DNA of 39,503 nucleotides, taken from the IMG/VR virus record IMGVR_UViG_2718218309_000001; one strand, 5' to 3'. Of this stretch, positions 1 through 37,816 are shown one piece after another. How positions within the stretch are numbered: the first letter of the stretch is position 1; each line of letters opens with the position of its first letter. Source of the DNA: a virus. Lineage: Duplodnaviria; Heunggongvirae; Uroviricota; Caudoviricetes. The notes under the pieces were generated by a model. It saw only the letters and a program-made list of their open reading frames with translations, was not told the origin of the DNA and did not search any database. Both the position numbers and the translations under genes were made by a program.

Positions 1-1749
1 ATGACAGTGGCAAATTATAATTCTCTTGTCCAGAAAACTTTCTGCGAAAATGCAATTCGTTCCGTTGTCATGATTGATGACGATTTTCTGACGTATTCTG
101 AATCAATCAGGGCGTTGAATAACGAAGTTGATTTAGACTACAACAAAATTGACTCATCTAAACGAGCCGCTACTCTTGAGAGCTTTTTTCAATCTAAAAA
201 TATGATTTGTGATGTTGACAATGGTTCTGTTAATTTCGATGTGGATCGGATTAGAAAATCAGATCTTATTATTGTAGATTATCATCTTGATAATAATGCA
301 CCTGATAAAACACTTAAACCATTACAAGATTTGAAAGACTCCGATCATTTAAATATGATTGTAATATATACTAGAGAGAATTTAGAAACGGTTTGGATGC
401 AGATATCATCGACTCTCAAAGGTGCTCTGGATATCAACAGCTTGATCATTGACTACGATAATGAAGATGTCCAAAGTTATTGGGAAGACGTTGTATTACC
501 GAACTTAAATGATAATGGTAATAAAGCTCTCACAAGAGATGAAACAATAGCCTATATTAAAGACAGTAAGCCTTGTAGAAGAATTAAAAGATTAATACAT
601 GATGATGCTGTGTTGGAGGATCAAAAGGATAAAAACTTCATTGCAAAAATGATTGCAGAATATGCTGTGTCTAGAAATGCAATTATTTCTAGCAACACAT
701 CTGGCAATGTCATTCGGGGTGATGAAAGCGGAGTAAAATGGATTCAATGTGGTAATATCTTTGTCTCCCTATTTCATAAGGTTCAAGATGATCATGAAAA
801 CGATGGAGATAGGATTTGGCAAACTCTCAATGATTCTCTCATTGAATGGAAACCATCTTATTATCAGTTAATAAAATCTGAAATTCAGAATGCAATCGAA
901 GCTGAGGCTTTATCTTTTGTAAATCATTTGGCTAACGATCATTACGGTCAAGCTGCGTGGTTAAATGAGATATTAAAATCAGACTCGCCTGATATTAGAT
1001 GTAGAAATATTGACTTTGTATTTGGTAATTTATCAGAAGAGCTTTATCAAAGACTTAAAAATAATAATACGCTGGATGAATTTATCAAAAGTGTTTTTGA
1101 TAGCTATTCAAATGAATACGCTAACAGCGGAGTTGCTGCATTGCTCCAATATTGCTCTTCAAAAATGGATCTGCCATCAAATAATGATACTTATCACGAA
1201 ATGTATCATGCTTTAAATATGAATTTGTCTTCAAAGAATTTTGAAGATGGTCATATTTCTACTGGCACTATTTTCTTTGATACAGAGTCGAACAAATGGT
1301 ATTTATGTGTATCTGCGGCATGTGATTTGGTTCCTACTCAGGGTAACGACCCTCACCATGTAAGATTAAGTCCGCACAGGCTCATTAAAGTTCTGGAGCT
1401 TTTTAACGCCAGTCAGAGTAAAGCATTGCCATTTGCTGAACATTCGAAATATATATATGTAATGCATAAAAATCAAAGAAAATATCTCTCTATTTTCGAA
1501 GGGGATAAAACGCTTCCTGTTGTTGATTATATGGTGGTGTTGAATCATGGAACAACAGTTGATGGCGAAGAAAAAAATATTATTTCTGCCGTGTTTTTAA
1601 GTAATATGGATGGCAACGTGCAAAATGTTCCTGTCCGACTCAAACTTAAATCTCAACTGAGAACTGGTTATGCAGAAAGATATCAGGCTATAGCGTCTCA
1701 GTATAGCTCAAGGATTGGTGTGGATTATGTATCAATGATGCTACCATAA
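1..1749 (+). CDS. Hypothetical 582-aa protein; N-terminal alpha/beta domain with acidic motifs (VVMIDDD, DLIIVDYHLD, MIVIYT, STLKG) reminiscent of receiver/PIN/Toprim-type folds; no P-loop seen
   Basis: Long uninterrupted ORF from ATG at position 1; AT-rich codon usage unlike the prophage core; alternating hydrophobic strands ending in Asp residues. Domain assignment is inference only. Confidence 0.6.
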   Translation: MTVANYNSLVQKTFCENAIRSVVMIDDDFLTYSESIRALNNEVDLDYNKIDSSKRAATLESFFQSKNMICDVDNGSVNFDVDRIRKSDLIIVDYHLDNNAPDKTLKPLQDLKDSDHLNMIVIYTRENLETVWMQISSTLKGALDINSLIIDYDNEDVQSYWEDVVLPNLNDNGNKALTRDETIAYIKDSKPCRRIKRLIHDDAVLEDQKDKNFIAKMIAEYAVSRNAIISSNTSGNVIRGDESGVKWIQCGNIFVSLFHKVQDDHENDGDRIWQTLNDSLIEWKPSYYQLIKSEIQNAIEAEALSFVNHLANDHYGQAAWLNEILKSDSPDIRCRNIDFVFGNLSEELYQRLKNNNTLDEFIKSVFDSYSNEYANSGVAALLQYCSSKMDLPSNNDTYHEMYHALNMNLSSKNFEDGHISTGTIFFDTESNKWYLCVSAACDLVPTQGNDPHHVRLSPHRLIKVLELFNASQSKALPFAEHSKYIYVMHKNQRKYLSIFEGDKTLPVVDYMVVLNHGTTVDGEEKNIISAVFLSNMDGNVQNVPVRLKLKSQLRTGYAERYQAIASQYSSRIGVDYVSMMLP

Positions 1750-1761
1750 TTATTATATTTT

Positions 1762-1789
1762 AGGCGTGGTGATTTTTTTCGCCATGCCT
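1762..1789. terminator. Hairpin (aggcgtgg / ccatgcct stem) followed by T-rich tract between convergent genes
   Basis: Inverted repeat 1762-1769 and 1782-1789 with about 12-nt loop, flanked by T runs; sits between the 3' ends of ORF 1-1749 (+) and ORF 1820-2236 (-). Confidence 0.3.
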
Positions 1790-1819
1790 ATTTTATATTT
1801 ATCATCACAATGATGTTGT

Positions 1820-2236
1820 TTATTTTTGTTTAAGTCTTCTAAGCTTCATGCATTCTAATGAGAATAATAATAGAGTTGTGCTGTATATAAAGCCAGAGTT
1901 AGTTAATAACTTTAAATTTAATGCTTCAGGATTTTCACTGAGAAAGTGAAAGGCATAAACTAAGTATACAGCTAAAGTAGCCGTTCCAATTGTTGGTCCA
2001 ATATCGCCTTGATCATGAGGTTCAAGGTTTACATTGAACTTGAAGATTAGCCATTCAAATCCCCAAGTAAAAAAAACAACTAATATCATGGCTGCGAATA
2101 ATTTCGCGATGTTATCTGCTGATGGATTCATCAGAACAGATTGTTTCTGAAAAAATTCACAAAGTGAGAGTCCGAAAAAAATAAAAAAAAGTGGTCTGGA
2201 ACTAAATTTTTCAAAAACTTTGAATAGGGTTTCCAT
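1820..2236 (-). CDS. Hypothetical small multi-pass membrane protein (138 aa, about 4 hydrophobic segments)
   Basis: ORF with several 18-22 aa hydrophobic stretches (FFIFFGLSL, AAMILVVFFTWGF, GTATLAVYLVYAF, IYSTTLLLFSL); immediately downstream of and co-directional with the P4-type integrase. Confidence 0.45.
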   Translation of the reverse strand: METLFKVFEKFSSRPLFFIFFGLSLCEFFQKQSVLMNPSADNIAKLFAAMILVVFFTWGFEWLIFKFNVNLEPHDQGDIGPTIGTATLAVYLVYAFHFLSENPEALNLKLLTNSGFIYSTTLLLFSLECMKLRRLKQK

Positions 2237-2274
2237 TTTCTTTACCTTCAGGATTATATTAGCTATTCTGATAC

Positions 2275-3546
2275 TTAGGCTACCAGAGCATTTGATCTTT
2301 GAGCTTGAACGTAATCACTCCACCATTGCATCAAACTCTGTCGCTCTATCAGATATTCTGCACGATTGTATGCTGCGATAATTTCATCTTTTTTCGAGTG
2401 GGCAAGCGCTGCCTCAAGAACTTCAGCTCTGAATTTACCAGACTCCTCTGCCGCTGTTCGTGCAATAGAACGCATACCGTGAGCTACAAGCTCGCCTCCG
2501 AACCCCATTCGGATGATAGCTGCGTTGGCTGTTTGTTCATGCATATGATTAAGAGGCGCTTTTATGCTGGGGAAAACCCATTCTCTATGCCCACTTATTG
2601 ATTTCATTAATTCAAGGATGCGCAAAGCTTCTTTACTCAAAGGAACTTTGTGAAGCTTTTTCATTTTCATGAAATCAGCAGGAATGTTCCAAATGCTGTT
2701 GGTTGTATCAATATCAGACCACCTTGCGCGAACGGCTTCACCCGGACGAACCCATGTCAACAATTGCCATTCAATTAGCATACGTGTTTCCAACCGGATT
2801 GACGCATTCGTCAAAGATTCCATAAACCTTGGCAATTCGCTTGGGGGAAGGGCAGGCATATTTTGCTTTTTTGGTTTACTGAATCTTTGACCAAGGTTGT
2901 CAGCCGGGTTGAACTCAATAAGTTCTTCAGTAGCTGCCCACCGGAAGATTTCATTCAGACGTGAAATGATACGGCGTAGAGTTTCCAATACGCCTCGTTG
3001 CTCAATAGGATCAAGGTGTTGTTTTAAGAGCTTAGGTCGGATCTCATTGATAGGGACATTACCCAGACCGGGAAAGACATTTCTCTCTAAGCTGCGCCAG
3101 ATGTCTGCTGCATGGTCTTGTGAGATACCTGATGTCTTTACCTTCTCATCTAACCATTTCCGCGCTACGGCTTGGAGAGTGTGCTCAGTAGCACTCTTTA
3201 ATGCCTTCGCCTTATCGTTGTTATGGATTTGGGGATCAACACCATTTGCCAGAAAGGAGAGATATTCATCACGTAAGGCTCTGGCTCTTGCAAGGGTAAG
3301 GTGAGGATATGTCCCAAGGCTCATTTTGGTTCTTTTCTTGCTCACTGGTACTGCATACCTGAAATACCAATTTTTCTTGCCTCCTTTCGCCAAAGGAGCG
3401 ATTCGTAGAATCAGACCATCACCGTCAAACAAGTTGATTTCTTTATCGGCTGGCTTGGTGCTTTTGATTTCAGTGTCAGTGAGCTTCTTAGCGATTTTTG
3501 CCATTTTGGGACCCTCGGTTTTTGGACCCTTCTTAGTGGGTCCCAT
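2275..3546 (-). CDS. int: P4-family tyrosine integrase (CP4-57 IntA-like); true start probably the internal Met (MAKIAKKLTDTEIK, near 3504)
   Basis: N-terminal TDTEIKSTKP...DGDGL...WYFRY motif block typical of P4-type integrases; C-terminal catalytic region with R...H..R..Y-type residues (HGMRS, AHS...YNRAEY); adjacent to att copy. Confidence 0.9.
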   Translation of the reverse strand: MGPTKKGPKTEGPKMAKIAKKLTDTEIKSTKPADKEINLFDGDGLILRIAPLAKGGKKNWYFRYAVPVSKKRTKMSLGTYPHLTLARARALRDEYLSFLANGVDPQIHNNDKAKALKSATEHTLQAVARKWLDEKVKTSGISQDHAADIWRSLERNVFPGLGNVPINEIRPKLLKQHLDPIEQRGVLETLRRIISRLNEIFRWAATEELIEFNPADNLGQRFSKPKKQNMPALPPSELPRFMESLTNASIRLETRMLIEWQLLTWVRPGEAVRARWSDIDTTNSIWNIPADFMKMKKLHKVPLSKEALRILELMKSISGHREWVFPSIKAPLNHMHEQTANAAIIRMGFGGELVAHGMRSIARTAAEESGKFRAEVLEAALAHSKKDEIIAAYNRAEYLIERQSLMQWWSDYVQAQRSNALVA

Positions 3547-3669
3547 TCAGGGTGCCATAACTCGTAGTTCTCAGCAATTCTCACTGGACGACAATAGACG
3601 TAAAAAAGCCCGCAGAGCTTGTGCTGTGTGGGCTTAGTAGACTTCATTGAACTTCAAACAACTAAAAAG

Positions 3670-3714
3670 TGGTGGAGCTGGCGGGAGTTGAACCCGCGTC
3701 CGAAATTCCTACAT
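3670..3714. repeat. 45-bp direct repeat of the ssrA 3' end (att core copy; junction between prophage and P4-like island)
   Basis: tggtggagctggcgggagttgaacccgcgtccgaaattcctacat is identical to 39102-39146 (the 3' end of ssrA); sequences diverge immediately outside. Confidence 0.9.
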
Positions 3715-3827
3715 ACCATTTTTATCATAGTAAAAACAGTAATTTACGTTTAAAAACAATGTATTAGTATTATTTTGTATTTGTCCGTTTTACGCATTTT
3801 TAATGCTCTGTCGCCAAATTGCCGCCA

Positions 3828-5021
3828 TCACTTCTTGTCTTCGATAGAACCGTATTCAAGAAGGTTGTCCATACACTTCTCTAACCTATAGAAATCTGTC
3901 AAAGGATAGAGATTGACAATGTTGTCATCAAAACTTTGCATACCTGATAAACGTTCTTTCCTTCTTAAGAATCTTGAGGCAGACCTAACACCATCATCCT
4001 CACTTGGTTCACAGGAATAATCTAGAGTTTTTAGTACCTGCCATGAAACGGGGGGAGTAAGCTTGAACATTTTTACTAGCTTAGGACAGAAATCTTTTGT
4101 TATGGTTTGCTGATATGTAACTTTAGGTGGAAGAACAACGTTAATAGATTTATCACCATGGTTTGTTTTAATCATTCTTGTCGATCTGTATGCAATTCCG
4201 ACAATGTTTGATTTATTTCTACGACTAATCCATTGCATTAATAAATTTGGGATTATATATTCCTGAGTGAAAGATGTGCTGCCGTTAATCTTTGCAAAAC
4301 TACAAGCGTAAATTAGTGGCATTAAACAAATGTAAGACATCTTTGTGATGTATGACATTTTGTCATTATCAATCTTACCATAGAAACGTGAGTAGAGGAT
4401 TTCCGAAGTGAAATCTAATATTTTGGAATTTTCTTCACTGGATATAAAAGAAGATATATATAACTTATCAAAATCAGGTTTATCCATTTCAAGCCAACAT
4501 ACATATAGGGATGAGCCTAAATATAAACAGGGTAGACCTGCAACCGAGTATCTTTGGGCATTTACCAAGTGCCTTTTAGAGAATGGTATATGAAAGATTT
4601 CATTTCTATTTTTTACTGCTGTATCAGATTTTCTAACCCTGAATAAAGGTCTTGAAGAATTGCAAATATTCTCTAAGGGGATTGATATTTTCTGGATGTA
4701 GTTAGCTGTGAATCGATCAGAAAATGTTCTGTCGAAAGTATCATATGAGGACTTGATATCACCTGATAAAAAATATTCCAAAGAGCTTACAACGCCAAAG
4801 TATATTCTTGTTATTCTATCAAGTTTAGAACTCAATCTACGAGATAATTCATTGTCATTATCTTCTATGTAGTCATTTAAAGTATTAAAGTAAATTTCAC
4901 ATTTATTTTTAAAATCATTAATAATGTCGGTCTTAACAGTGAAAGGGAGTTTTAAATCTCCCGTCTTTATAAGGCTTTCAAATAAAAAATTAAAATCATC
5001 ATGTATATTTTCGGTTTCCAT
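3828..5021 (-). CDS. RES-domain-like protein (397 aa), candidate NAD+-targeting toxin/effector
   Basis: Motif block PLFRVR...QRYSVAGLPCLYLGSSLYVCWLE (aa about 125-179) matches the RES signature (Arg ... G.P.LYL.SS ... E) known from RES-Xre toxins; very AT-rich; second gene of an operon downstream of int. Confidence 0.55.
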   Translation of the reverse strand: METENIHDDFNFLFESLIKTGDLKLPFTVKTDIINDFKNKCEIYFNTLNDYIEDNDNELSRRLSSKLDRITRIYFGVVSSLEYFLSGDIKSSYDTFDRTFSDRFTANYIQKISIPLENICNSSRPLFRVRKSDTAVKNRNEIFHIPFSKRHLVNAQRYSVAGLPCLYLGSSLYVCWLEMDKPDFDKLYISSFISSEENSKILDFTSEILYSRFYGKIDNDKMSYITKMSYICLMPLIYACSFAKINGSTSFTQEYIIPNLLMQWISRRNKSNIVGIAYRSTRMIKTNHGDKSINVVLPPKVTYQQTITKDFCPKLVKMFKLTPPVSWQVLKTLDYSCEPSEDDGVRSASRFLRRKERLSGMQSFDDNIVNLYPLTDFYRLEKCMDNLLEYGSIEDKK

Positions 5022-5075
5022 TGTTATTATCCTTTTGAGTAATTTAATGAATATAACGGGTTTTTCGTGACAGCA

Positions 5076-6203
5076 TCATTCCAAATGATCTGCCGCCGCT
5101 TTGCCGCCAAGGATTTTCATATAAGGAGGCTTAGCATAAACCTCCTTGGTCTGCTGGAAAGTGGTTTTGGAGAATCTTCTTTCTTCTGATTGTAAATATT
5201 TTAGCAGACGTTGATATTTGTTTTCTAATATTTGACTATTCCCAGCCAGATCGTAAATATCGCAGGTTATGTTATAAAGCCAATAAACTACGGCTTTGAT
5301 TTCAGGCTCTGAGAAATAGGTTGTGTTAAATACATATTCATTATTATGATTGTAAATGTAGGAGTGTTTCCTTTGTATAGTGTTAACCTTAAGTAGCTTC
5401 ATAAGGTTGATAATTTTAAGGTCAATAGAAATTAAAGAAATTATCTCTGACTTCAAATCACCCTTTTTGATACCAATAATTTCTTTATCAAGTTCATTCC
5501 AGGCATTTATGATTTTTTGCGTGAATTTTGGGGAAGGGCTATAAATTGCACCAGTATTTTGTGAAGATTGAAATAAATTATTATAAAGCTTATGAGGAAA
5601 TACAATTTTCACTTCGTAAGTATTTACTTTTTCACTTGATTCTATATAAGCATGGCTAGCCACTTCAGCAGCCACATGCCTTGTTCGATCAGTCTGCGTG
5701 GGGATATATTCAAGAACCAAAGTAGGGAATGAACTAATCGTTTCGATAAATAGTTTTAAATGAGAGTAATAAGCGTCTGCATTGTTTTTAACTTTAGCTG
5801 ATTGTATCTGTGATTCAGTTTGAATGGTTCTATGAATATTATTTACTATTGAAGCCAGTGGCACTGATGAAGCTAATAATAGCAACGGAAGTTTACTAAT
5901 ATTAAGAAAATTTGCAAACCCGTCGGTTGTCAGTTGTAAACTATGATCTCTCCAAACCCAGCAACCGAATAAAATAAAATAGTAAAATGGTAATAAGATA
6001 GAAGCTATAAACAAAGGTTGTTTGAATAAATTATTGTCATTTAACTCAAACCACCCGTAAAAATAAAACAGTCCTATTGTTATAAATAATGAGGTTATTG
6101 CCACCGTTAAGAACATTACCTCAAAACCATAATATATTGTAAAAGTATTTGCAACTATGGATAGTAAGAGCAAAAAAGTTAAAGTGATAATTTTATTTTT
6201 CAT
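5076..6203 (-). CDS. Hypothetical membrane protein (375 aa): about 4 N-terminal TM helices plus about 280-aa soluble C-terminal domain
   Basis: Hydrophobic segments in the first 90 aa; start ATG (6203-6201) overlaps the int stop codon (TGA 6202-6200), i.e. ATGA translational coupling with int; AT-rich. Confidence 0.6.
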   Translation of the reverse strand: MKNKIITLTFLLLLSIVANTFTIYYGFEVMFLTVAITSLFITIGLFYFYGWFELNDNNLFKQPLFIASILLPFYYFILFGCWVWRDHSLQLTTDGFANFLNISKLPLLLLASSVPLASIVNNIHRTIQTESQIQSAKVKNNADAYYSHLKLFIETISSFPTLVLEYIPTQTDRTRHVAAEVASHAYIESSEKVNTYEVKIVFPHKLYNNLFQSSQNTGAIYSPSPKFTQKIINAWNELDKEIIGIKKGDLKSEIISLISIDLKIINLMKLLKVNTIQRKHSYIYNHNNEYVFNTTYFSEPEIKAVVYWLYNITCDIYDLAGNSQILENKYQRLLKYLQSEERRFSKTTFQQTKEVYAKPPYMKILGGKAAADHLE

Positions 6204-7219
6204 AAGTTAATCATATTCAACGGGTTTTTGGTAACTGCATCTTCTAAATGATCTGGGGAGAAATGTGCATAGATCATTGTCATCTTAATATCGGCATGCC
6301 CAAGAATTTCTTTAAGAACAAGTATATTACCGCCATTCATCATGAAATAGCTTGCGAAGGTATGCCGCAGCACGTGGGTACATTGGCCCTCTGGCAAGTC
6401 GATACCAGCTCGTTTCACTGCGCGCTCAAAAGCTTTTCTGCATGGCGTGAATAGTTTCCCTCTGTTTTTGGGGAGTTCATCATACAGCTCCTGAGATATC
6501 GGTATGGTACGGTTTTTCTTGCCTTTAGTTTTGGTATAGGTGATCCGGTATTTAGTTAACTGATGGCCTTGAAGGTTTTCTGCTTCACTCCATCGCGCGC
6601 CGGTAGCCAGGCATATTTTTGCAATCATCAATAGGCTGGAGCTATGAGAATCTGCGCAAGCATCAAGCAGGCGTTTAATTTCTTCCGTGGTCAGGAACGC
6701 CAGCTCACCTTCTGCGATTTTAAATGTTGGCAAACCGGCGAGTGGATTGGGTGCTGACCAATGGCCCAACTTTTTCAGTGTGCCAAACACGGATGATAGG
6801 TTGCGTTGTTCAAGGTTTACCGTGCGAGGCTTAACTGGCGACATAAGCACGCCATCTTCATTTCGCACCTCACCTTTTAGCCGTGCTTCGCGGTATTTCG
6901 TAAAGTCGCCAGCGGTTAACTCTGAGGCAACAGGATCACCCAGGCCGTTACAAATAATGTTGAGTTTTGCCATCAGGCGTTTGGGGTCAGCAAGTGTCTG
7001 CCCGTAGAGTGAATGCCATTGCTCAATCACTTCTGACAAACGCCGCCGATCTTCTTTCTCACCCAACCACGGTTTTTTGTTTACTTCGTCCATGGTGTGA
7101 TTTTCGAATGCTATGGCCTCACCTTTCGTCGCAAATTGTTTGCGCACACGCTTGCCGTCGCGCCCGTTAGGGTAGCACTCACATAACCATTTACCGTTCG
7201 GCTGTTTTCTGATGGTCAT
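6200..7219 (-). CDS. int: P2/186-type tyrosine integrase
   Basis: 339-aa protein with N-terminal MTIRKQPNGKWLCE... and C-terminal catalytic residues (R...HVLRHTFAS...YAHF), as in P2 Int; located next to the repressor gene as in P2/186. Confidence 0.9.
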   Translation of the reverse strand: MTIRKQPNGKWLCECYPNGRDGKRVRKQFATKGEAIAFENHTMDEVNKKPWLGEKEDRRRLSEVIEQWHSLYGQTLADPKRLMAKLNIICNGLGDPVASELTAGDFTKYREARLKGEVRNEDGVLMSPVKPRTVNLEQRNLSSVFGTLKKLGHWSAPNPLAGLPTFKIAEGELAFLTTEEIKRLLDACADSHSSSLLMIAKICLATGARWSEAENLQGHQLTKYRITYTKTKGKKNRTIPISQELYDELPKNRGKLFTPCRKAFERAVKRAGIDLPEGQCTHVLRHTFASYFMMNGGNILVLKEILGHADIKMTMIYAHFSPDHLEDAVTKNPLNMINL

Positions 7220-10051: not shown

Positions 10052-10905
10052 GCACCATCCTGAAATGGGCGGGAAATAAAACCGCAATTATGTCCGAACT
10101 GAAAAAACACCTTCCTGCTGGCCCGCGACTGGTTGAACCTTTCGCGGGTTCCTGTGCTGTGATGATGGCGACGGATTATCCAAGCTATCTGGTTGCGGAT
10201 ATTAATCCTGATTTAATCAACCTCTATAAAAAGGTTGCCGCTGATTGTGAATCGTTTATATCTCGCGCCAGAGTTTTATTTAAGGAAGCAAACAGGGAGG
10301 TGGCTTATTACAACATAAGGCAGGAGTTTAATTACTCAACTGAAATTACTGATTTCATGAAAGCGGTATATTTCCTGTATCTCAATCGTCACGGTTACCG
10401 TGGTTTATGTCGCTATAACAAGAGCGGGCATTTCAACATTCCGTACGGTAATTATAAAAATCCGTATTTCCCTGAAAAAGAAATTCGCGCATTTGCAGAG
10501 AAAGCCCAGCGGGCAACGTTTATCTGCGCAAGCTTTGATGAAACGCTGGCGATGCTGCAGGTGGGGGATGTGGTGTATTGCGATCCGCCGTATGACGGTA
10601 CGTTTTCCGGCTATCACACTGATGGTTTCACTGAAGATGACCAGTATCACCTAGCATCCGTTCTTGAACATCGGTCATCAGAAGGACATCCGGTCATTGT
10701 TTCTAACAGTGACACATCCCTGATCCGTTCGCTATATCGCAATTTTACTCACCACTACATCAAGGCAAAACGCAGCATCGGTGTGGCAGCTGGTGAGAGT
10801 AAATCTGCAACAGAAATCATCGCTGTTTCCGGGCCGCGCTGCTGGGTGGGATTTGATCCTTCGCGTGGCGTGGATAGTTCTGCCGTGTACGGAGTGCGTG
10901 CATGA
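10048..10905 (+). CDS. dam: DNA adenine methyltransferase (Dam family, GATC-type)
   Basis: N-terminal SAM-binding block (KWAGNK...LVEPFAGS) and catalytic DPPY motif ([10 protein letters not shown]); ATG at 10048; stop overlaps the A start (ATGA). Confidence 0.9.
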
Positions 10906-13316
10906 GCCATGCTGATATGAACAACTGCAGCGGCTTTAACGAGGCCGCCGCAGCATTCTCATGGAACAGCCCGAAAAAGGCCATTAACCCTTATCTGGAC
11001 CCGGCGGAAGTTGCGCCGGTTTCTGCGCTTTCAAACCTGATCACTCTGTACGCTGCTGATAACGAGCAGGAACAGCTGCGCCGTGAGGCGCTGAGTGATC
11101 AGGTCTGGGAGCGTTATTTCTTTAATGAATCCCGTGATCCTGTCCAGCGCGAAATGGAACAGGATAAGCTCATTAGTCGGGCAAAGCTGGCGCATGAGCA
11201 GCAGCGTTTTAATCCGGATATGGTCATTCTGGCGGACGTCAACGCCCAGCCTTCCCATATCAGCAAGCCGCTGATGCAACGTATTGAATACTTCAGCAGC
11301 CTGGGCAGGCCAAAGGCTTATTCCCGCTATTTGCGTGAGACGATTAAGCCATGTCTGGAACGACTGGAGCATGTACGCGACAGTCAGCTATCCACTTCTT
11401 TTCGCTTTATGGCAAGCCATGAAGGGCTGGACAGTCTGCTGATCCTGCCTGAAATGAGTCAGGATCAGGTGAAACGCCTGTCCACCCTGGTAGCTGCGCA
11501 TATGAGCATGTGCCTTGATGCCGCTTGTGGCGATTTGTATGCCACCGATGACGTTAAGCCAGAAGAAATCCGCAAGACATGGGAAAAGGTGGCGGCGGAA
11601 ACCCTGCGACTGGATGTCATACCGCCTGCGTTTGAGCAACTCCGCCGGAAAAGAAACCGCCGTAAACCCGTGCCCTATGAACTCATTCCGGGGTCGCTGG
11701 CGCGTATGCTGTGCGCCGACTGGTGGTATCGGAAATTGTGGAAGATGCGTTGCGAATGGCGGGAAGAGCAGTTGCGTGCTGTTTGCCTGGTCAGCAAAAA
11801 AGCATCTCCCTATGTCAGCTATGAAGCCGTGATGCATAAACGTGAGCAGCGCCGTAAGTCGCTGGAGTTTTTCCGTTCTCATGAACTGGTGAACGAAGAC
11901 GGCGACACGCTGGACATGGAGGATGTGGTAAACGCCAGCAGCAGCAACCCTGCGCATCGCCGCAATGAGATGATGGCCTGTGTTAAAGGTCTGGAGCTTA
12001 TCGCGGAAATGCGCGGTGACTGCGCCGTTTTCTACACCATCACCTGTCCGTCACGTTTCCATTCCACGCTAAATAACGGCAGGCCCAACCCGACCTGGAC
12101 AAATGCGACGGTAAGACAAAGCAGTGATTATCTGGTCGGCATGTTTGCTGCATTTCGTAAGGCGATGCACAAAGCCGGATTGCGCTGGTATGGCGTGCGG
12201 GTGGCTGAGCCGCATCATGACGGTACAGTTCACTGGCATCTGTTGTGTTTTATGCGCAAAAAAGATCGCCGCACCATTACTGCTTTGTTGCGTAAGTTTG
12301 CCATTCGTGAAGACCGCGAGGAGCTGGGTAATAACACGGGACCACGCTTTAAGTCTGAGCTGATAAACCCGCGCAAAGGTACGCCAACAAGCTACATCGC
12401 GAAATACATCAGTAAGAACATTGACGGGCGTGGTCTGGCTGGCGAGATCAGCAAGGAAACGGGTAAATCCCTGCGTGATAACGCTGAATACGTTAATGCC
12501 TGGGCGTCTCTGCATCGTGTTCAGCAATTCCGCTTCTTTGGCATTCCGGGGCGTCAGGCTTACCGTGAACTGCGATTGCTGGCTGGTCAGGCGGCAAGGC
12601 AACAGGGGGACAAAAAAGCAGGTGCGCCGGTACTGGATAACCCGCGCCTTGATGCAATCCTGGCTGCTGCTGATGCTGGTTGTTTTGCCACCTACATCAT
12701 GAAGCAGGGCGGCGTACTGGTTCCCCGCAAATATCACCTCATCAGAACTGCTTATGAAATCAACGAAGAACCGACCGCATATGGCGATCACGGTATTCGT
12801 ATTTATGGCATCTGGTCACCCATTGCAGAGGGCAAGATCTGCACTCATGCGGTGAAGTGGAAAATGGTTCGTAAGGCCGTTGACGTTCAGGAGGCGGCAG
12901 CCGACCAGGGCGCTTGCGCCCCTTGGACTCGTGGCAATAACTGTCCCCTTGCTGAAAATTTGAACCAACAGGAGAAAGATAAATCAGCAGATGGGGATAC
13001 CAGAACTGATATTACCTGCATGGATGACAAGGAATTGCACGATTACCTGCACAATATGAGCAAAAAAGAGCGCCGGGAACTGGCAGCAAGATTACGCCTG
13101 GTTAAACCGAAACGGCGTAAAGACTACAAACAGCGAATTACAGAGCATCAGCGTCAGCAGCTCGTCTATGAACTGAAGTCCAGAGGATTTGATGGCAGCG
13201 AGAAAGAGGTCGATTTGCTCCTTCGCGGTGGCAGTATTCCGTCAGGAGCAGGCCTGCGTATCTTCTATCGGAACCAGCGTTTGCAGGAAGATGATAAGTG
13301 GCGGAACCTGTATTAA
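10902..13316 (+). CDS. A: Replication initiation protein A (rolling-circle nickase, P2 gpA / 186 RepA)
   Basis: 804-aa protein with the HxH...Y(I)AKYISK active-site region (TVHWHLLCF ... [11 protein letters not shown]) characteristic of P2 gpA. Confidence 0.9.
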
Positions 13317-13408
13317 TTACGCGGGTTAACAATTCGTGCTCTTAATAATACCAGGCATATCAGGCTGATGAACGTAAAAAAACGTTTTACATCAGTAAGA
13401 TTATTATA

Positions 13409-13428
13409 TACTGTAAATATAAACAGTG
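13409..13428. promoter_or_regulatory. LexA box (SOS operator) TACTGTAAATATAAACAGTG
   Basis: Matches CTGT-N8-ACAG with AT-rich spacer; lies about 45 bp upstream of ORF 13470 and the DinI-like gene. Confidence 0.55.
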
Positions 13429-13469
13429 TTTATGCATACAGTGTTGCTTGTGGTGTCATAGGAGGAAAG

Positions 13470-13658
13470 ATGCAGGACTATTTTTTGGAGTCTTTGAAGC
13501 TCCAGCGCATTGATTTTTTTCTTAAGCTTGTAGCGGCTAGTGAGTGTAGTGATGAAGAGAAGGGGCTGGCTCTGCAGTGGGTTTCTGAATTGACTGATGA
13601 ACTCATGGCAAAAATCAGAAGCCACGAATACAACCGCTCAATGGATGTCATCAGCTGA
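13470..13658 (+). CDS. Hypothetical small protein (62 aa), first gene of putative SOS-controlled operon
   Basis: GGAGGA RBS 4-9 nt upstream of ATG 13470; preceded by LexA box. Confidence 0.5.
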   Translation: MQDYFLESLKLQRIDFFLKLVAASECSDEEKGLALQWVSELTDELMAKIRSHEYNRSMDVIS

Positions 13659-13668
13659 GGTGACTTTT

Positions 13669-13902
13669 ATGCGCATTGAAATAATGATCGATAAAGAGCA
13701 GAAGATTAGCCAGTCTACCCTGGACGCTCTGGAGTCCGAGCTTTACCGCAACCTGCAACCCATCTATCCCAAGACAGCTATCCGCATCCGTAAAGGGTCG
13801 GCAAACGGCGTTGAGCTGAGTGGCTTAAAGCTTGATGAAGACAAAAAGCGGGTGATGGAAATTATGCAGCAGGTTTGGGAAGACGACAGCTGGCTGCACT
13901 AA
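13669..13902 (+). CDS. dinI: DinI-family protein (77 aa)
   Basis: MRIEIMIDKEQ...LDALESEL...IMQQVWEDDSWL follows the DinI pattern (MRIEV...ETWE..DW); GAGGTG RBS. Confidence 0.8.
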   Translation: MRIEIMIDKEQKISQSTLDALESELYRNLQPIYPKTAIRIRKGSANGVELSGLKLDEDKKRVMEIMQQVWEDDSWLH

Positions 13903-13975: not shown

Positions 13976-14236
13976 ATGGGTAAAAAAGACAGTAATCACC
14001 AGATTATTTATCGGGGCCAGGTGCTGGAACGGTTTACCCCTGGCGGCTGGGTCTTCTTTCAACGCCCAAAGGAGTGTGGCGGAGGTTTTTGGTTGGGCCG
14101 CACCTATGAAGACTGCTTCTGGCTTGAGCTGGAATTCCCCGTTTCGCTATATGACGGCCTGGAGTTTTTGATGGAAGTCACCAGGGTAGAGCAGAGAAGT
14201 GATGAGGTTGACGCGAATTATTCCCTGTTTGATTAA
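13976..14236 (+). CDS. Hypothetical protein (86 aa), possible Tum-like or other accessory protein
   Basis: ORF following the DinI-like gene; assignment is positional only. Confidence 0.45.
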   Translation: MGKKDSNHQIIYRGQVLERFTPGGWVFFQRPKECGGGFWLGRTYEDCFWLELEFPVSLYDGLEFLMEVTRVEQRSDEVDANYSLFD

Positions 14237-14284
14237 AAATGTATTAGCTTATAATGGAATACTATTTTTGCAGGTGGGGGCGCA

Positions 14285-14896
14285 ATGGATTTAGTCTTTA
14301 AAATTCTGGCTTCGTTGGGTGGGGTGTCTTTTGTTGCATCTGGCATATTTGTTTGGATCGGGAAAGTTTATTTAGAAAGATATAAGTCGCGGCTAAACAA
14401 AGATATTGCTGAATTTCAATCACAACTGAGTGCAACTAATGAAAGAATAAAGGCTAAGTTAGACAATTCTGTTTATGTAACGAAAGCGTATTTTGATAAG
14501 GAGTTATCAGCATATAGTCTCATTTGGAATTCGATGTTTGAAACCAGAGAAAGCGTGCTTAAGCTGAGGCCTGCGCTGGATCATTTTGACCCCAACGAAC
14601 CATTTGAAGAGAGAAAATTTAGAAGGTTGAAAGTTTTTTTCGATGCATTTAATACTTTTGTTACAAGTGTTGAGTCTAACAAACCGTTCATCTCACCAGA
14701 GGTTTATATAATCTTGGACCGTTTCCGGAAGGAATGCTTTTCAGAGTCAATATCGTTTCAGCATGGCGATCCAGAATTTGACTGGCAAAATTATTGGAAA
14801 GAGGCAGAGTTGAATCGTACAACCATCACCAAGCTTTTTGATGAGACGTGTGATGCAATTCGAGACAGGATGCACACATTAACTGTGGTTACGTAG
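14285..14896 (+). CDS. Hypothetical membrane-anchored protein (203 aa; N-terminal TM helix plus helical cytoplasmic domain); hotspot cargo at the tin/old position
   Basis: N-terminal hydrophobic segment ILASLGGVSFVASGIFVWIG; AT-rich; lies between gene A and cos where P2 carries the anti-phage genes tin and old. Confidence 0.6.
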   Translation: MDLVFKILASLGGVSFVASGIFVWIGKVYLERYKSRLNKDIAEFQSQLSATNERIKAKLDNSVYVTKAYFDKELSAYSLIWNSMFETRESVLKLRPALDHFDPNEPFEERKFRRLKVFFDAFNTFVTSVESNKPFISPEVYIILDRFRKECFSESISFQHGDPEFDWQNYWKEAELNRTTITKLFDETCDAIRDRMHTLTVVT

Positions 14897-14987
14897 TTTT
14901 CCAAAAAGTCTCGATGCCCGCTTTGGCGATTGTGCATGTCTATGCCGCATGAATCCGCATGATCGTTTGAGGATCGTTTTAGCTGAG

Positions 14988-15011
14988 GCCCGCTAGGAAT
15001 GGCGGGCTTTT
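14988..15011 (+). terminator. Rho-independent terminator (GCCCGC-loop-GCGGGC followed by TTTT)
   Basis: Perfect 6-bp GC stem with 8-nt loop and T tract downstream of ORF 14285-14896. Confidence 0.45.
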
Positions 15012-15056
15012 GCTTATGTCATGCAGACGCATGAAAACCACTACATAAAGCGGGCA

Positions 15057-15075
15057 GGCGTGGCGGGGATACGAG
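15057..15075. other. cos site (cohesive-end sequence) of the P2/186-type prophage
   Basis: GGCGTGGCGGGGATACGAG closely matches the 19-nt cohesive ends of 186 (GGCGTGGCGGGGAAAGCAT) and P2 (GGCGAGGCGGGGAAAGCAC), recalled from memory. Confidence 0.55.
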
Positions 15076-15185
15076 CGCGCGCTCATGGTTGAATTAATGA
15101 AATTATGGTGTTAAATAGGCTAGCTTTTTAAGTCGTGAATATTCAATTTTTCAACTCATTTTTTTCATAGGGAGGAGTAATTGAC

Positions 15186-15884
15186 ATGGTTATGTTAGTG
15201 GATGACTGTCCACGATGTGGATCACAAAAAATAGCGTTTGATGTTAATGGGCTGAATTGCACTAGGGTTTACAATGCATTGGGCGGGGGTAAAACATACG
15301 AGTACGAGGTCTATTGTGTTTGCCGAGAGTGTCATAAAACGACAATGTTTCTTTGCAGACCTTTAACGAAAAATAAAACTTTAGATGGCTATAATTGGGA
15401 AAGTGGAATATTCGGCTTAAAGGAAGTTGCAGAGGTTGTTAGGCCTATATCACCGGCAGACTTAGCAGTAGAGGAGCCACCAGAGTTCTTACCTGAGCAT
15501 ATCAATAGTACATATGAGGAAGGGGCGAAATGTTTGGCTATAGGTTGTTATAATGCAGCAGCAACCATGTTTAGGCTTTGCCTTGATTATGCCACAAAAG
15601 GACTTCTTCCTGATGGGGAGCAAGGGCCTGCGCAAAAAATAAGGAGAAGCCTAGGGTTAAGAATGGAGTGGTTATTTGATAATCATCTACTGCCTGAAGC
15701 TTTAAGGGAACTAGCTGAATGCGTTAAAGATGACGGAAATGATGGAGCGCATGAAGGTATTTTGGATAAAGCTGCTGCTGAGGATCTTGAAGATTTTACC
15801 TATCTTTTTTTAGAACGGCTTTACACTGAACCTCAACGCCTTATCGAAGCCAAGACAAGGCGTGAACAAAGAAGAAACAAATAA
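15186..15884 (+). CDS. Hypothetical Zn-ribbon protein (232 aa): N-terminal CPRCG...CRECH plus C-terminal helical domain; cargo between cos and Q
   Basis: Cx2C-N30-Cx2C at the N-terminus; GGAGGAG RBS; AT-rich; stop is only 8 bp from the Q stop. Confidence 0.65.
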   Translation: MVMLVDDCPRCGSQKIAFDVNGLNCTRVYNALGGGKTYEYEVYCVCRECHKTTMFLCRPLTKNKTLDGYNWESGIFGLKEVAEVVRPISPADLAVEEPPEFLPEHINSTYEEGAKCLAIGCYNAAATMFRLCLDYATKGLLPDGEQGPAQKIRRSLGLRMEWLFDNHLLPEALRELAECVKDDGNDGAHEGILDKAAAEDLEDFTYLFLERLYTEPQRLIEAKTRREQRRNK

Positions 15885-15892
15885 GTTCGGAA

Positions 15893-16930
15893 TTATTCTT
15901 CTGAAAGAATATAGGGCGTAAATTTAATCACTTCTTCGCCCAGCCAGTCGTTCAGCTCTTGTAGCCTTTTTTGCAAGGGCGTTAATTCATTACGTACAAA
16001 TACGCGACTGGCCTTCTCCACATCCCCAAACCCCCCGACATTATTAGGCATTATCCCCATCATTTGTGGCGGCACACGATGCGCCGCCATCATGTCGTCC
16101 CGGCTCACGTTCTTGATATTCAGGAACTCATCCTTCGCCGCCACTTCTGACAACGGGATAATCTGAAGCCCGTCCTTTTTACCGTTAGGCGAGTACATAA
16201 ACAGGTTACGGAAGTTACCAGGACCTTTGGCGCTTTTCATCGCATTGCGGAGGTTGTTCACATCCTCCTGGTTCTGTGCTGCATCGGTCATGTACATGAT
16301 GAAGCCTGCATGACTGCCGTTAATGTAATACTTGCGGCGGAACAGCGTGGCGGACTCGTTGAGCAGAGCTGACGGAATGGCAGAAAGATAACCAGGCAGG
16401 CCGTAGATCTCCTGGTTGATGTCCGGTTCCATCAGATGAAAAATGTTGCCTTTCGTGAACTGATACGGCTGCGTAGTCATGCCGTATTGCACAAACCAGT
16501 AGGTATCAAGGTCTAACCCGCGTCGGGTGTATTTTGCCAGTGCAGGCTCAAGGGCGATAACTTCACCGAAGCGGTTCGTGCGTTTCTCCAGGTAGGCGTT
16601 ACCAAAAACCAGATAGTCCTGTACAAAACGCGAAAAAGCCTGCTGGCTGAGCAGCGGGTGAGGGATGTAGGTGCTGGTCAGAATGTTGCACTTCACTGCA
16701 ATCGGTGAGCTGTGATGCACGGCGGCGCGGAAGGTTCGCGCCAGTCCGTCGAAACTCACAGGCGGCTCGTACCAACGATCCATCTGTACGCATTCCACAT
16801 AGTCCAGCAGTTCGCGGCGGTCCAGAACAGGAACGGGATCACCGAAGCTGAATGCTTCGGCTGAAGTCTGGCTTTTATGCTGGATCTGTTTCGTCGACGC
16901 AGCGCGGTTCTTCTTACTCTTTCCCATCAA
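15893..16930 (-). CDS. Q: Portal protein (P2 gpQ)
   Basis: 345-aa protein, size and position (leftward, next to cos, before P) match P2 Q. Confidence 0.95.
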   Translation of the reverse strand: MMGKSKKNRAASTKQIQHKSQTSAEAFSFGDPVPVLDRRELLDYVECVQMDRWYEPPVSFDGLARTFRAAVHHSSPIAVKCNILTSTYIPHPLLSQQAFSRFVQDYLVFGNAYLEKRTNRFGEVIALEPALAKYTRRGLDLDTYWFVQYGMTTQPYQFTKGNIFHLMEPDINQEIYGLPGYLSAIPSALLNESATLFRRKYYINGSHAGFIMYMTDAAQNQEDVNNLRNAMKSAKGPGNFRNLFMYSPNGKKDGLQIIPLSEVAAKDEFLNIKNVSRDDMMAAHRVPPQMMGIMPNNVGGFGDVEKASRVFVRNELTPLQKRLQELNDWLGEEVIKFTPYILSEE

Positions 16931-28638: not shown

Positions 28639-29021
28639 AATATTATTCACCTTCAATTAATGGATTTCCCGAACAAAAGACTGATGACAGTATTGAGATC
28701 AGTGAAGAGGTCTGGAGAATACTTCTTAGTGAAATTTACTCAGGCCGGGAGTTATTTAACGATGGCGGCGTACCCGCTACCCGTGTGCCGCAACCTACGC
28801 AAGAACAAGTAATTGCAGCCGCAGAAAATGAGCGCCAACGATTGCTGAATTATGCTGATACCGTAATGCTCGACTGGCGTACAGAATTGATGCTGGGTGA
28901 AATCAGCGACGCCAACAGGGCTAAATTGTCGGCGTGGCTGGCTTATAAAAATCAAGTTAAGTCGGTTGATGTGACAACTGACCCTGAGCATGTTAACTGG
29001 CCTGTTCCCCCGGAGGCGTAG
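28635..29021 (+). CDS. G: Tail fibre assembly protein (P2 gpG-like)
   Basis: 128-aa protein after H; conserved Tfa C-terminal motif (...NWPVPPEA). Confidence 0.8.
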   Translation: MKYYSPSINGFPEQKTDDSIEISEEVWRILLSEIYSGRELFNDGGVPATRVPQPTQEQVIAAAENERQRLLNYADTVMLDWRTELMLGEISDANRAKLSAWLAYKNQVKSVDVTTDPEHVNWPVPPEA

Positions 29022-29436
29022 GCCATTCAATATCTGGCGCACTGGAGGTATCAACCAGTTCCAGTGCGTCCAGATAATCCAGCCATAAATTATATTGTTC
29101 CAGCTCGTCACCTTTCAGACGACCAATAGCAGCTTTGCCAGGCCACTGATGGGTATTGATGTAGGTATTGACTTCTGAAACCAAAGATATTTTTTTCATT
29201 TCAGCCGTCAACACCTCATCCTCTTTTGAAGGGGGTGGGGAATTAATCCATACTGGCCGTCCTGAACTGTCAGCGCCAATTTCTTTCCCTTCTGGATGCA
29301 GCCCAAGAAATTGCTCATATGTTTCTCGGTTAATTTCAATAACATCATCTGGAAGCGTTCCCGCATCCTCATATTCTGGAAACAATTCTTGTAGATAAAA
29401 ACTTTTACTTCCGGGTGAAAAGAATACTGAGTTCAT
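28993..29436 (-). CDS. Alternative tail fibre assembly protein (tfa') in inverted orientation
   Basis: 147-aa protein with the same C-terminal motif family (...EWPTPPGEQAS); convergent with G, 3' ends overlap. Confidence 0.75.
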   Translation of the reverse strand: MNSVFFSPGSKSFYLQELFPEYEDAGTLPDDVIEINRETYEQFLGLHPEGKEIGADSSGRPVWINSPPPSKEDEVLTAEMKKISLVSEVNTYINTHQWPGKAAIGRLKGDELEQYNLWLDYLDALELVDTSSAPDIEWPTPPGEQAS

Positions 29437-29438
29437 TA

Positions 29439-29933
29439 TTACCGTCCAATGATTAACGCTGAGACGCTGGTATCTGAAGGAAAGGCTGCATTCAGTGGTT
29501 TGTCGACTTTGAATACAATCGTATTATTCCCCCGGACAGCGGCAAAAGAACAAACCGCCGTCGCGTATGAACCTGTAATATTACTGGATACACCACCATA
29601 GGTTGTTGTTGATACCAGAGGGATAACGCCCAGCACCTTATTAGGAAATACAAAGGGCAATGTGGCTGTGGCAATATAAGACTTATTAGAACCTGTGATG
29701 GCATAAGCATTATCAGTCATTCCATTCATCGCCACTGGGCCGCTTATACTTACAGTAACCATCTGAATGATTAGCCCGTCAGGTTGACGAATCACAAAAT
29801 TTCCATTGCCACCAGTAACCGTCCAGAAAGACATATCAGGGATTTGGTTTTCCCCGTTGCCCACATTCCGTTTTGCCGCTTCTCCCAAACCAACGTTTAA
29901 GAAAATGCAGAGGTAACAGCTAACTGGCATCAT
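29439..29933 (-). CDS. Alternative tail fibre C-terminal segment (H'), expressed as a fusion to the H N-terminus after inversion
   Basis: Frame stays open upstream of the listed Met through the right crossover site (…LGEAAKRNV…); Gly/Thr/Ser-rich beta-type composition typical of fibre tips. Confidence 0.7.
   Translation of the reverse strand: MMPVSCYLCIFLNVGLGEAAKRNVGNGENQIPDMSFWTVTGGNGNFVIRQPDGLIIQMVTVSISGPVAMNGMTDNAYAITGSNKSYIATATLPFVFPNKVLGVIPLVSTTTYGGVSSNITGSYATAVCSFAAVRGNNTIVFKVDKPLNAAFPSDTSVSALIIGR
29871..29893. repeat. Right crossover site of the invertible segment (inverted copy of 28184-28206)
   Basis: See left site; about 1.7 kb apart, invertase gene immediately outside. Confidence 0.55.
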
Positions 29934-29960
29934 CTCCGGTTTTTATTCAGGGGGATGATC

Positions 29961-37507: not shown

Positions 37508-37597
37508 TTCTTCACAATGGAGAACTTTTAAGTTTGAAAAATGGAATAATGCGATATCATTATTGTGAATTTAGCAAAAATGGGGAGAACTCGAAAA

Positions 37598-37816
37598 ATG
37601 ATGATTTGCCCACTGTGTGGAAGTGCCGCCCATACTCGCAGCAGTTTTCAGGTATCTTCATTGACCAAAGAGCGTTACAACCAGTGCCAGAACATTAACT
37701 GCAGCCATACTTTTGTTACCCATGAAACTTTTGTTCGTTCGATTGCAACGCCAAAAGAGTCAAATCCGGTTCAGCCGCATCCTCATAAATTTAAACAGGT
37801 GGGTTTGCCGATTTAA
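37598..37816 (+). CDS. ogr: Late gene transcriptional activator Ogr (zinc-finger)
   Basis: MMICPLCGSAAHTRSS...KERYNQCQNINCSHTF parallels P2 Ogr (CPLC...KERYHQCQNVNCSATF); 72 aa from ATG 37598. Confidence 0.9.
   Translation: MMICPLCGSAAHTRSSFQVSSLTKERYNQCQNINCSHTFVTHETFVRSIATPKESNPVQPHPHKFKQVGLPI

Follow-up and report, generated by a model that had tools for sequence, protein, structure and literature searches.

The stretch of DNA considered here (the window) comprises the 39,503 nucleotides of the IMG/VR virus record IMGVR_UViG_2718218309_000001, assigned to the Caudoviricetes, and our subject is a single gene at positions 14285-14896 that encodes a 203-residue protein and lies between the replication gene gpA and the cos site of a P2-like prophage. 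This region of the window is 99.5-99.8% identical to the P2/186-like prophage of Escherichia coli LF82 and of other strains; the LF82-type prophage has been deposited as phage Cartapus (Peduoviridae, Elveevirus). The gene is LF82_789 of strain LF82 (CARTA_47 of Cartapus), and this name is used below for the gene and its product. In the databases, the protein is labeled either "hypothetical protein" or, wrongly, "valyl-tRNA synthetase". The latter label, carried by some RefSeq records, is rejected, since it stems from a coiled-coil match to Val_tRNA-synt_C that falls short of the threshold (E = 0.009; 16.7 bits vs a cutoff of 25.9). The gene order is gpA, a LexA-boxed promoter, a 62-amino-acid (aa) open reading frame (ORF), a DinI/Tum-like gene, an 86-aa ORF, LF82_789, a GC-rich hairpin, cos, a gene for a zinc-ribbon/DUF4145 protein, the portal gene Q and the terminase gene P, with the following coordinates.

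10902-13316: gpA, replication endonuclease.
13386-13441, plus strand: SOS-regulated promoter region with a TTTACA -35 element and tandem LexA boxes, CTGTAAATATAAACAG (perfect, at 13411) and GTGTTTATGCATACAG (at 13426).
13471-13902, plus strand: upstream SOS module, consisting of the 62-aa ORF (13471-13658; phrog_698) and the DinI/Tum-like gene (13669-13902; Pfam DinI, 3.8e-24, and LF82 annotation).
13976-14236, plus strand: 86-aa ORF (phrog_2100), intact in the window, dispensable.
14229-14255, plus strand: candidate promoter of LF82_789 itself, TTGATT-15 nt-TATAAT, 30 nt upstream of the ATG; read from the sequence, coincident with a step in RNA-seq, and conserved in Enterobacter loci.
14285-14896, plus strand: LF82_789, 612 bp, ATG start, 203 aa (WP_000366628-type; PHROG 26391).
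14981-15019, plus strand: GC-rich hairpin (14981-15014; dG -22.9 kcal/mol, z -4.3) and then a U-run, resembling an intrinsic terminator.
15025-15083: cos region, core GGCGTGGCGGGG at 15057-15068, which splits the A-side slot (with LF82_789) from the Q-side slot.
15186-15884, plus strand: Q-side neighbor between cos and portal Q, 232 aa, N-terminal zinc ribbon (CPRCG...CRECH) followed by DUF4145 (Pfam 4.6e-7; weak PADLOC match to PD-T7-4, 1.1e-6; phrog_1305).
15893-16930, minus strand: portal Q.

A preliminary inspection of the bare letters and their ORFs (hereafter, the sequence-only reading) had described an AT-rich gene for a 203-residue protein in the position that is occupied in P2 by the anti-phage genes tin and old. 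Both parts of this description are confirmed. The ORF is exactly that at 14285-14896, with a Shine-Dalgarno-like AGGTGGGG at 14272-14279, 5 nt ahead of the ATG, and its GC content (38.2%) is lower than that of gpA (52.9%) and of the prophage body (52.5%). The same A-to-cos interval holds tin and old in the P2 reference genome, on the opposite strand, and the gpA-gpQ interval of P2-like prophages has been defined as a defense hotspot (Rousset et al. 2022, PMC9122126). Table S5A of that work lists the arrangement "hypothetical + DinI + hypothetical + hypothetical + DUF4145" with these accessions; apart from this listing and the table of an RNA-seq study of the LF82 prophages, no mention of the protein was found in the literature. 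The cos site was located through the Cartapus record, in which a putative cos is annotated at bases 1-59, and through its GGCGTGGCGGGG core; cosR of P2 is GGCGAGGCGGGGAAAGCAC, and the exact P2 cos 19-mer has no match within 3 mismatches. The terminator that the sequence-only reading placed after the gene exists in the form of the hairpin, directly followed on its 3' side by UUUUGCUU, and is absent from the calls of a consensus terminator scanner, but it forms part of the conserved sequence to the left of cos and not of the gene cassette: it is present in loci with and without LF82_789 and, since it is also found where different cargo replaces this gene, it is not specific to it.

The content of the interval between gpA and gpQ, adjacent to cos, is variable, and LF82_789 is rare in it: the gene was detected in 51 of the 5426 complete E. 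coli genomes, in 40 of them as an intact copy and in 11 as a copy that is ~90% identical and carries a deletion of roughly 20 bp; other parts of the 2.6-kb region, by contrast, have matches in 1288 genomes. In one P2-like locus (L005), a different cargo stands on the A side in place of LF82_789 and the DUF4145 gene is still present. On the other side of cos, at least 15 unrelated cassettes were counted across the 30 P2-like loci that carry LF82_789 or its 83-100% identical relatives, and in all 30 the cos core lies exactly 161 nt after the stop codon of the gene. These Q-side cassettes include DUF4145, a PIN-domain protein, a 560-aa P-loop NTPase, AIPR, STM3845 with a retron-type reverse transcriptase, an OLD-like AAA_15/TOPRIM protein, AAA_21 with RloB, a Schlafen/HATPase protein, and several unknowns. 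Thus, cargo of the A side and of the Q side combine independently, and the hotspot therefore consists of two slots separated by cos, of which the A-side slot has LF82_789 as an independent and comparatively stable occupant. Within the Enterobacteriaceae, LF82_789 is confined to mobile elements, at cargo positions shared with known defense genes, and always lies beside known defense cassettes. The distribution supports its assignment to cargo and not to the phage core, and the low GC content marks the gene as foreign; with the gene present in so few genomes, replaced in one locus and found also outside P2-like phages, the swappable cargo slot envisaged by the sequence-only reading is borne out. 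We also noted that the 11 degraded copies adjoin an intact PRTase+DprA pair, a validated anti-phage system (Rousset et al. 2022, PMC9122126), in a decayed element with integrase fragments (locus L004, E. coli RM10410, NZ_CP042350, 4001-6433), which looks like a fossil P2 hotspot whose Q-side cargo outlived both the phage and LF82_789.

An alternative reading makes LF82_789 one component of a multi-gene system. In the window, LF82_789, the 86-aa ORF and the DUF4145 gene are adjacent, on the same strand and AT-shifted, the DUF4145 protein has its weak match to PD-T7-4, and the three appear as one arrangement in the table of Rousset et al.; LF82_789 might then act together with the DUF4145 protein or, in the manner of a toxin-antitoxin pair, with the 86-aa ORF. 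Both versions are, however, essentially excluded. The DUF4145 gene occurs in 45 genomes and LF82_789 in 51, with only 24 carrying both; the latter gene is paired with the numerous unrelated Q-side cassettes enumerated above, and cos, lying between the two genes, consigns them to opposite ends of the packaged genome; on these grounds a two-gene system with DUF4145 is rejected. A type II toxin-antitoxin pair, which would require both genes to be conserved together, is rejected because the 86-aa ORF has decayed to a pseudogene in six loci from Enterobacter (start codon lost and frameshift) and in one from E. coli 504237 (stop at codon 15), all seven with an intact LF82_789. The decayed copies of this ORF (L003, 3692-3952; L010-L015, 5693-5953) still retain 88-97% nucleotide identity, perhaps owing to the presence of the LF82_789 promoter within them. 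Furthermore, no recurring partner was found among 367 neighbors of 80 distant loci or among hand-picked downstream genes of ~200 aa. The single-gene behavior suspected by the sequence-only reading is therefore upheld by the alternation of Q-side cassettes, the decay of the 86-aa ORF and the lack of a recurring neighbor, and LF82_789 is an autonomously expressed prophage moron without an obligate partner. That reading was silent on the DUF4145 gene as a second, independent cargo, as well as on the LexA-boxed, tum-like SOS operon that reads toward LF82_789; in LF82, transcription of the DUF4145 gene exceeds the prophage background about 3.7-fold, and the encoded protein is probably the better a-priori defense candidate at this locus.

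LF82_789 is a real gene under purifying selection: between the E. coli and Enterobacter alleles, which share 83% amino-acid identity, the ratio of nonsynonymous to synonymous substitution rates (dN/dS) is 0.13 at dS 0.76, with 0.07 for gpA. The existence of homolog clusters (17 close and 921 remote, see below), this dN/dS value and the published evidence of expression jointly show that it is more than a chance ORF. The expression values are those of the published RNA-seq of LF82, that is, of a 99.7%-identical locus in a strain other than that of the window, and are given as log2 of fragments per kilobase per million (fpkm). Of the condition codes, BLB (stationary phase in lysogeny broth, LB) and MB6 (macrophages, 6 h) are confirmed, and the meanings of B1 and B6 are inferred.

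LF82_789: BLB 5.4-5.6; B6 8.5-8.6; MB6 10.5.
86-aa upstream ORF: BLB 3.1-3.3; B6 2.6-2.8; MB6 7.5-7.7.
CI repressor: BLB 5.0-5.1; B6 about 8.1; MB6 8.1.
gpA: BLB about 2.5; B6 2.8; MB6 2.8-2.9.

LF82_789 is one of just two "morons" of Cartapus, expressed 7-fold above the prophage background in LB (PMC9928086, Table 1), and shares expression in the lysogen with defense morons; these literature data on the near-identical locus show transcription in the lysogen that exceeds the background and is independent of the neighboring lytic and early genes, at about the level of CI. Outside SOS induction, LF82_789 (log2 5.4-8.6) is expressed about 5- to 60-fold above the 86-aa ORF (log2 2.6-3.6). From this sharp step between the two genes, we infer that transcription of LF82_789 starts in the 48-nt gap that separates them, where TTGATT-15-TATAAT is the sole promoter candidate. 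A promoter scanner reported no promoter upstream of the gene, the 15-nt spacer of this candidate being too short for the scanner.

A second, SOS-dependent transcription input to LF82_789 is likely. The LexA boxes at 13386-13441 overlap a sigma-70-like promoter upstream of the 62-aa ORF and the DinI-like gene, a LexA box upstream of LF82_789 is kept in all P2-like loci examined, and in the published LF82 data the transcripts of the LexA-boxed cluster go up together, and strongly, in macrophages. The analog of this region is the LexA-controlled p95-tum antirepressor module of phage 186 (PMC7708051), from which the window differs in that the Tum-like function is apparently split into two ORFs. 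Such an arrangement could suggest that LF82_789 is a phage life-cycle accessory, the last gene of an SOS-inducible tum-like operon encoding a membrane factor for self-superinfection, lysis timing or the interplay with P4-type satellites. In its favor, the tandem LexA boxes and the DinI/Tum-like gene precede LF82_789 in the same orientation, and no strong terminator separates them from it; Enterobacter loci that have lost the DinI gene still keep the LexA box; transcript levels across the cluster increase jointly in macrophages; and the distance from the gene to cos is fixed in 30 loci. Yet the gene is absent from most P2/186-like prophages and its family extends beyond P2-like phages, its level without SOS induction is about 5 to 60 times that of the upstream gene, and a pseudogenized copy persists harmlessly in 11 genomes. 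We consider the life-cycle role quite unlikely; the SOS module is context and not part of the function of LF82_789.

The same expression data can be read in another way, namely, that LF82_789 is a moron of lysogenic conversion, a membrane-tethered scaffold or regulator that alters the envelope or stress physiology of the host (e.g. in host-like medium or in macrophages) and benefits the lysogen directly. The increase of its transcript from log2 5.5 in stationary LB to 8.5-8.6 under B6 and 10.5 after 6 h in macrophages would fit such a role, but the CI, integrase and DUF4145 genes rise in parallel, so that the change in expression is not specific to LF82_789. The further evidence on this alternative comes from the architecture and the distribution of the protein family and is weighed with them below.

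The predicted domain layout of the protein is as follows.

14303-14362, plus strand: N-terminal transmembrane (TM) helix, aa 7-26, from hydropathy, conservation and AlphaFold2, kinked at LGG.
14363-14467, plus strand: juxtamembrane segment and stalk helix, aa 27-61, from the AlphaFold2 helix and heptads read from the sequence.
14483-14878, plus strand: cytoplasmic four-helix bundle, aa 67-198.

With an alignment of 62 sequences, AlphaFold2 yielded a model with a predicted local distance difference test (pLDDT) score of 94.3, and 5 of 5 models scored above 92. In the model, a short helix (2-10) and a kink (L11-G12-G13) precede a single continuous helix that spans residues 14-61 (pLDDT 94-97). 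It leads into an up-down bundle of helices 67-92, 107-131, 138-160 and 167-198, which is clasped by a pair of strands, 63-65 and the C-terminal 199-201. The hydrophobic segment 7-26 (mean Kyte-Doolittle value 2.0) has no second counterpart in the protein and contains the conserved small residues G12, G13, G20 and G26. Its N-terminal flank is short and acidic, with 1 K/R, and there are 5 K/R among the 15 residues that follow it, a charge pattern kept in 60 of 62 relatives (mean K/R 0.44 before the segment and 3.5 after it). By the positive-inside rule, the K/R-rich flank after the TM helix implies an N-out/C-in topology with the large domain in the cytoplasm. The membrane protein with one N-terminal TM helix and a helical cytoplasmic domain that had been proposed from the letters is supported by this topology and by the confident model, in which the domain is all-helical. 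Residues 30-62 show heptad a/d positions (L30, Y33, L37, I41, F44, L48, N52, I55, L59), and we infer that the stalk may form a parallel coiled coil through which the protein oligomerizes. The (near-)invariant residues of the head form two groups, one near the stalk end (F70, E73, Y77, W81, P134, F135, I192, R193, R195) and one at the far end (L94, R95, P96, E154), with R110 and R114 conserved in the closer relatives. No nuclease, NTPase, protease or HEPN signature was found in the protein. An HEPN-like nuclease (Rx4-6H) was considered on account of the C-terminal IRDRMH and is rejected: the spacing is R-x3-H, H197 is unconserved (family consensus IRxRI), and no Pfam family of the HEPN clan matches.

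A word-indexed search retrieved only close enterobacterial relatives (17 homolog clusters). An exhaustive profile search of 1.84 billion representatives, with clusters defined at 50% identity, yielded 921 clusters at E <=1e-3 and 388 at <=1e-10, nearly all of 190-220 aa and aligned end to end. The sole label attached to this family is phrog_26391, "unknown function". Among 62 diverse members, there are no matches to Pfam, PADLOC, NCBIfam or PDB sequence families; in particular, the Pfam-A hmmscan of LF82_789 and the 62 relatives gave only sub-threshold coiled-coil noise, with SieB, Imm, Abi_2, AbiH and DUF4760 among the families unmatched. Nor is there any similarity to the P2 proteins, in agreement with the sequence-only reading: the best blastp match to Tin (253 aa) covers 6 residues at E = 1.0, with a profile score of -0.8 bits, and comparison with Old gives blastp E >=2.7, a negative profile score and no AAA/TOPRIM match in Pfam or PADLOC. 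Homology to the TM proteins of the Rousset systems (RT-nitrilase + 1TM, Gop, Hydrolase + 3TM) was also tried and rejected, hmmsearch at maximum sensitivity giving 1.3-4.3 bits and blastp E >=0.04 on 15-residue segments. Structure prediction and remote profile searches, as the sequence-only reading had suggested, thus lead to a confident helical model and to a family of 921 clusters without a named match.

When one genome per species was scanned with an alignment of a 5-sequence subgroup, 111 relatives were identified in Acidobacteriota, Nitrospirota, Desulfobacterota, Cyanobacteria, Bacillota, Planctomycetota, Bacteroidota, Gammaproteobacteria and one bacterium of the candidate phyla radiation (CPR); the sample was selected through the WLGKVWA pattern, and it and its frequencies are biased toward that subgroup. 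Of the 80 loci retained, 22 have the full architecture and another 13 a divergent last helix; the other 45 have in common only the first 60-100 residues, comprising the TM helix, a "WLGKVWAxRIL" segment and the beginning of the stalk. Beyond this shared part, the 45 proteins are helical and separate into at least 10 clusters that are unrelated to one another and match nothing in Pfam or PADLOC. The N-terminal module of ~65 residues is 40-60% identical across distant phyla (L037, L043, L049, L060, L062, L070, L090 etc.), and the C-terminal halves measure 175-445 aa. There is thus a constant membrane module joined to variable cytoplasmic heads, as one would expect if an invariant effector or anchor were combined with variable recognition domains. 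In its strongest form, this would mean that the N-terminal module is a portable membrane effector with interchangeable helical "sensor" heads, that the proteins constitute a widespread, unrecognized class of one-protein membrane abortive-infection systems, and that the protein of the P2 hotspot is its first experimentally tractable member; we put this forward as a speculation that is rather unlikely to hold.

The genomic contexts outside P2-like phages are diverse. A relative with 43% identity lies directly after the integrase of an element resembling a phage-inducible chromosomal island (PICI) with a ClpP-capsid fusion and small-terminase-like genes, and one with 76% identity lies in a small island adjacent to smpB. 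Other relatives are found beside an integrase and IS91, between HigBA/HNH-WYL and an integrase, in a prophage-like region of Corallococcus, near Rhs and transposase genes and, in one case, a few genes from a GAPS4-type nuclease. A few neighbors of distant members are of the defense or mobile type (a type III methyltransferase, DolB, resolvases and PDC candidates), and the toxin-antitoxin-like DUF4411 and DUF4160 also occur among these neighbors. As a side observation, the lambdoid prophage that hosts the PICI-like element (L006, 1-2442, Enterobacter-type) encodes a DUF4760 membrane protein before its lysis cassette and a DUF4145 protein after it, both domain types also being seen at P2 hotspots.

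This distribution bears on the conversion moron introduced above. The family is broad, spread over many phyla and mostly outside recognized viruses, its distant members often stand among ordinary chromosomal genes, and the head is a generic protein-interaction bundle without enzyme motifs, all of which would suit a direct effect on the physiology of the host. Against it stand the confinement of the gene, within the Enterobacteriaceae, to mobile elements and to the cargo positions of defense genes, and its rare and patchy occurrence (51 of 5426 E. coli genomes). Such a role is possible but, in our view, doubtful.

Taken together, the location of the gene, its expression in the lysogen, the pattern of a constant effector with variable heads, and the precedent of single-TM effectors at such hotspots suggest that LF82_789 is a stand-alone phage-exclusion or abortive-infection factor; from this analysis, we consider it the most likely role and assign it a probability of roughly 40%. 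Under this scenario, the protein would be anchored in the inner membrane by its single N-terminal helix in the N-out/C-in orientation, would probably assemble through the parallel coiled-coil stalk, and would display the non-enzymatic four-helix-bundle head in the cytoplasm. The head could recognize a component or a consequence of infection by another phage, upon which the glycine-rich TM and juxtamembrane module would perturb the membrane or block a membrane-linked step of infection. The division of labor would accordingly be that between a TM and juxtamembrane module as the business end and a four-helix head as the determinant of specificity.

Several observations weigh against an exclusion or abortive-infection role. 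The arrangement listed by Rousset et al. is absent from the cloned and tested systems in their Table S2 (PMC9122126). In PADLOC-DB v2.0.0, no family matches LF82_789 at E <=1, and the 62 relatives give scattered single weak hits, none of them shared; PADLOC and profile comparisons revealed no link between the family and any known defense family. The four-helix head has a generic interaction fold that leaves the mechanism unconstrained. Within the hotspot, LF82_789 is a far more constant element than the adjoining Q-side slot, the same allele standing beside many cassettes, and its place downstream of an SOS operon, with which it rises in macrophages, would fit a role in induction or stress. 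Among distant members, the enrichment of defense and mobile-element genes is weak: the 113 neighbors within two genes on either side of 35 loci include a handful of defense or PDC matches and many housekeeping genes, counts that come without a background rate, and such ordinary neighbors include a nucleoside symporter, a tRNA methyltransferase, cytidylate kinase and ClpB. Finally, just 7 distant relatives were found in IMG/VR. The probability left over by the readings discussed here belongs to the absence of a function or to a function outside those considered.

The existence of the gene at this locus was already public, through the table of Rousset et al. and the LF82 RNA-seq, as uncharacterized hotspot cargo and as a prophage moron. 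What is new here is the orphan family of about 900 diverged clusters, the confident structure and topology, the independence from neighboring genes, the two-slot anatomy around cos and the portable N-terminal module. If LF82_789 blocks phages, it would represent a new, compact (612 bp), single-gene family of membrane-anchored defense proteins unrelated to the catalogued ones, its roughly 900 diverged relatives across phyla, with their modular architecture of exchangeable heads, could be mined, and the A side and the Q side of the P2 cos hotspot would be shown to be distinct slots that turn over at different rates. Otherwise, it still ranks as one of the two accessory genes with the highest expression in a prophage of the Crohn's-associated strain LF82, and one that is strongly up in macrophages.

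Elsewhere in the window, a reverse-transcriptase gene (RVT_1, 2e-21; 38220-38990, plus strand) lies directly beyond the Ogr/Delta zinc-finger gene ogr (37565-37816), at the far end of the prophage. The corresponding end of the LF82 Cartapus prophage carries a highly expressed "putative exonuclease" moron, LF82_783, and this end looks to be another cargo slot, with different content in near-identical prophages. A segment of lower GC content at 28996-30524, in which a Hin/Gin-type resolvase/invertase gene (29955-30524, plus strand) lies beside a tail-fiber-assembly gene (28996-29436, minus strand) and a gene for a tail-fiber C-terminal part (29442-29933, minus strand), is probably an invertible segment concerned with host range. 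An AT-rich block at 1-6203 (GC 0.31-0.39), on the left of the P2-type integrase (6200-7219, minus strand), encodes a 582-aa Response_reg_2 receiver protein (1-1746), a P4-type integrase (2278-3546, minus strand) and two large ORFs without a Pfam match (3831-5021 and 5079-6203, both minus strand); it could represent an integrated element of its own or else att-proximal cargo that abuts the prophage.

When LF82_789 is compared with known systems, the structural resemblances of its head turn out to be fold-generic: the four-helix ligand-binding bundles of Tar/Tsr, TorS and Adeh_2942, as well as FAT/talin, share 3-13% sequence identity with it. The sensor bundles of chemoreceptors and kinases are periplasmic and flanked by two TM helices, whereas in LF82_789 a single TM helix precedes the bundle, which is predicted to lie in the cytoplasm and lacks an output domain. 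Small, single-gene, partner-free exclusion or abortive-infection (Abi) proteins anchored in the inner membrane are well represented by lactococcal AbiP, SieB of P22/lambda, Imm of T4 and gp15 of HK97, and several single-gene membrane proteins of the superinfection-exclusion (Sie) and Abi types expose their functional part to the periplasm. LF82_789 is alike in concept, its large domain being, however, predicted in the cytoplasm, and is set apart from these proteins via Pfam models only. The RT-nitrilase + 1TM system, validated at the P4 hotspot, includes a protein of about 228 aa with one TM helix that its authors regard as a membrane effector (Rousset et al. 2022, PMC9122126). This protein scores 3-4 bits against the profiles of the LF82_789 family and needs a reverse-transcriptase partner, whereas LF82_789 has no conserved partner; the two are nevertheless similar in size and in having an N-terminal TM helix, a charged coiled-coil-like segment, a helical domain and a cos-adjacent hotspot as their location. 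The closest positional counterparts remain tin and old of P2. Their products are soluble, Old being an ATPase-TOPRIM nuclease, and they are transcribed leftward from a cos-adjacent promoter, whereas LF82_789 is a predicted single-pass membrane protein without enzyme motifs that is transcribed rightward; yet, all three occupy the gpA-to-cos slot as non-core, AT-shifted cargo that is expressed from the prophage.

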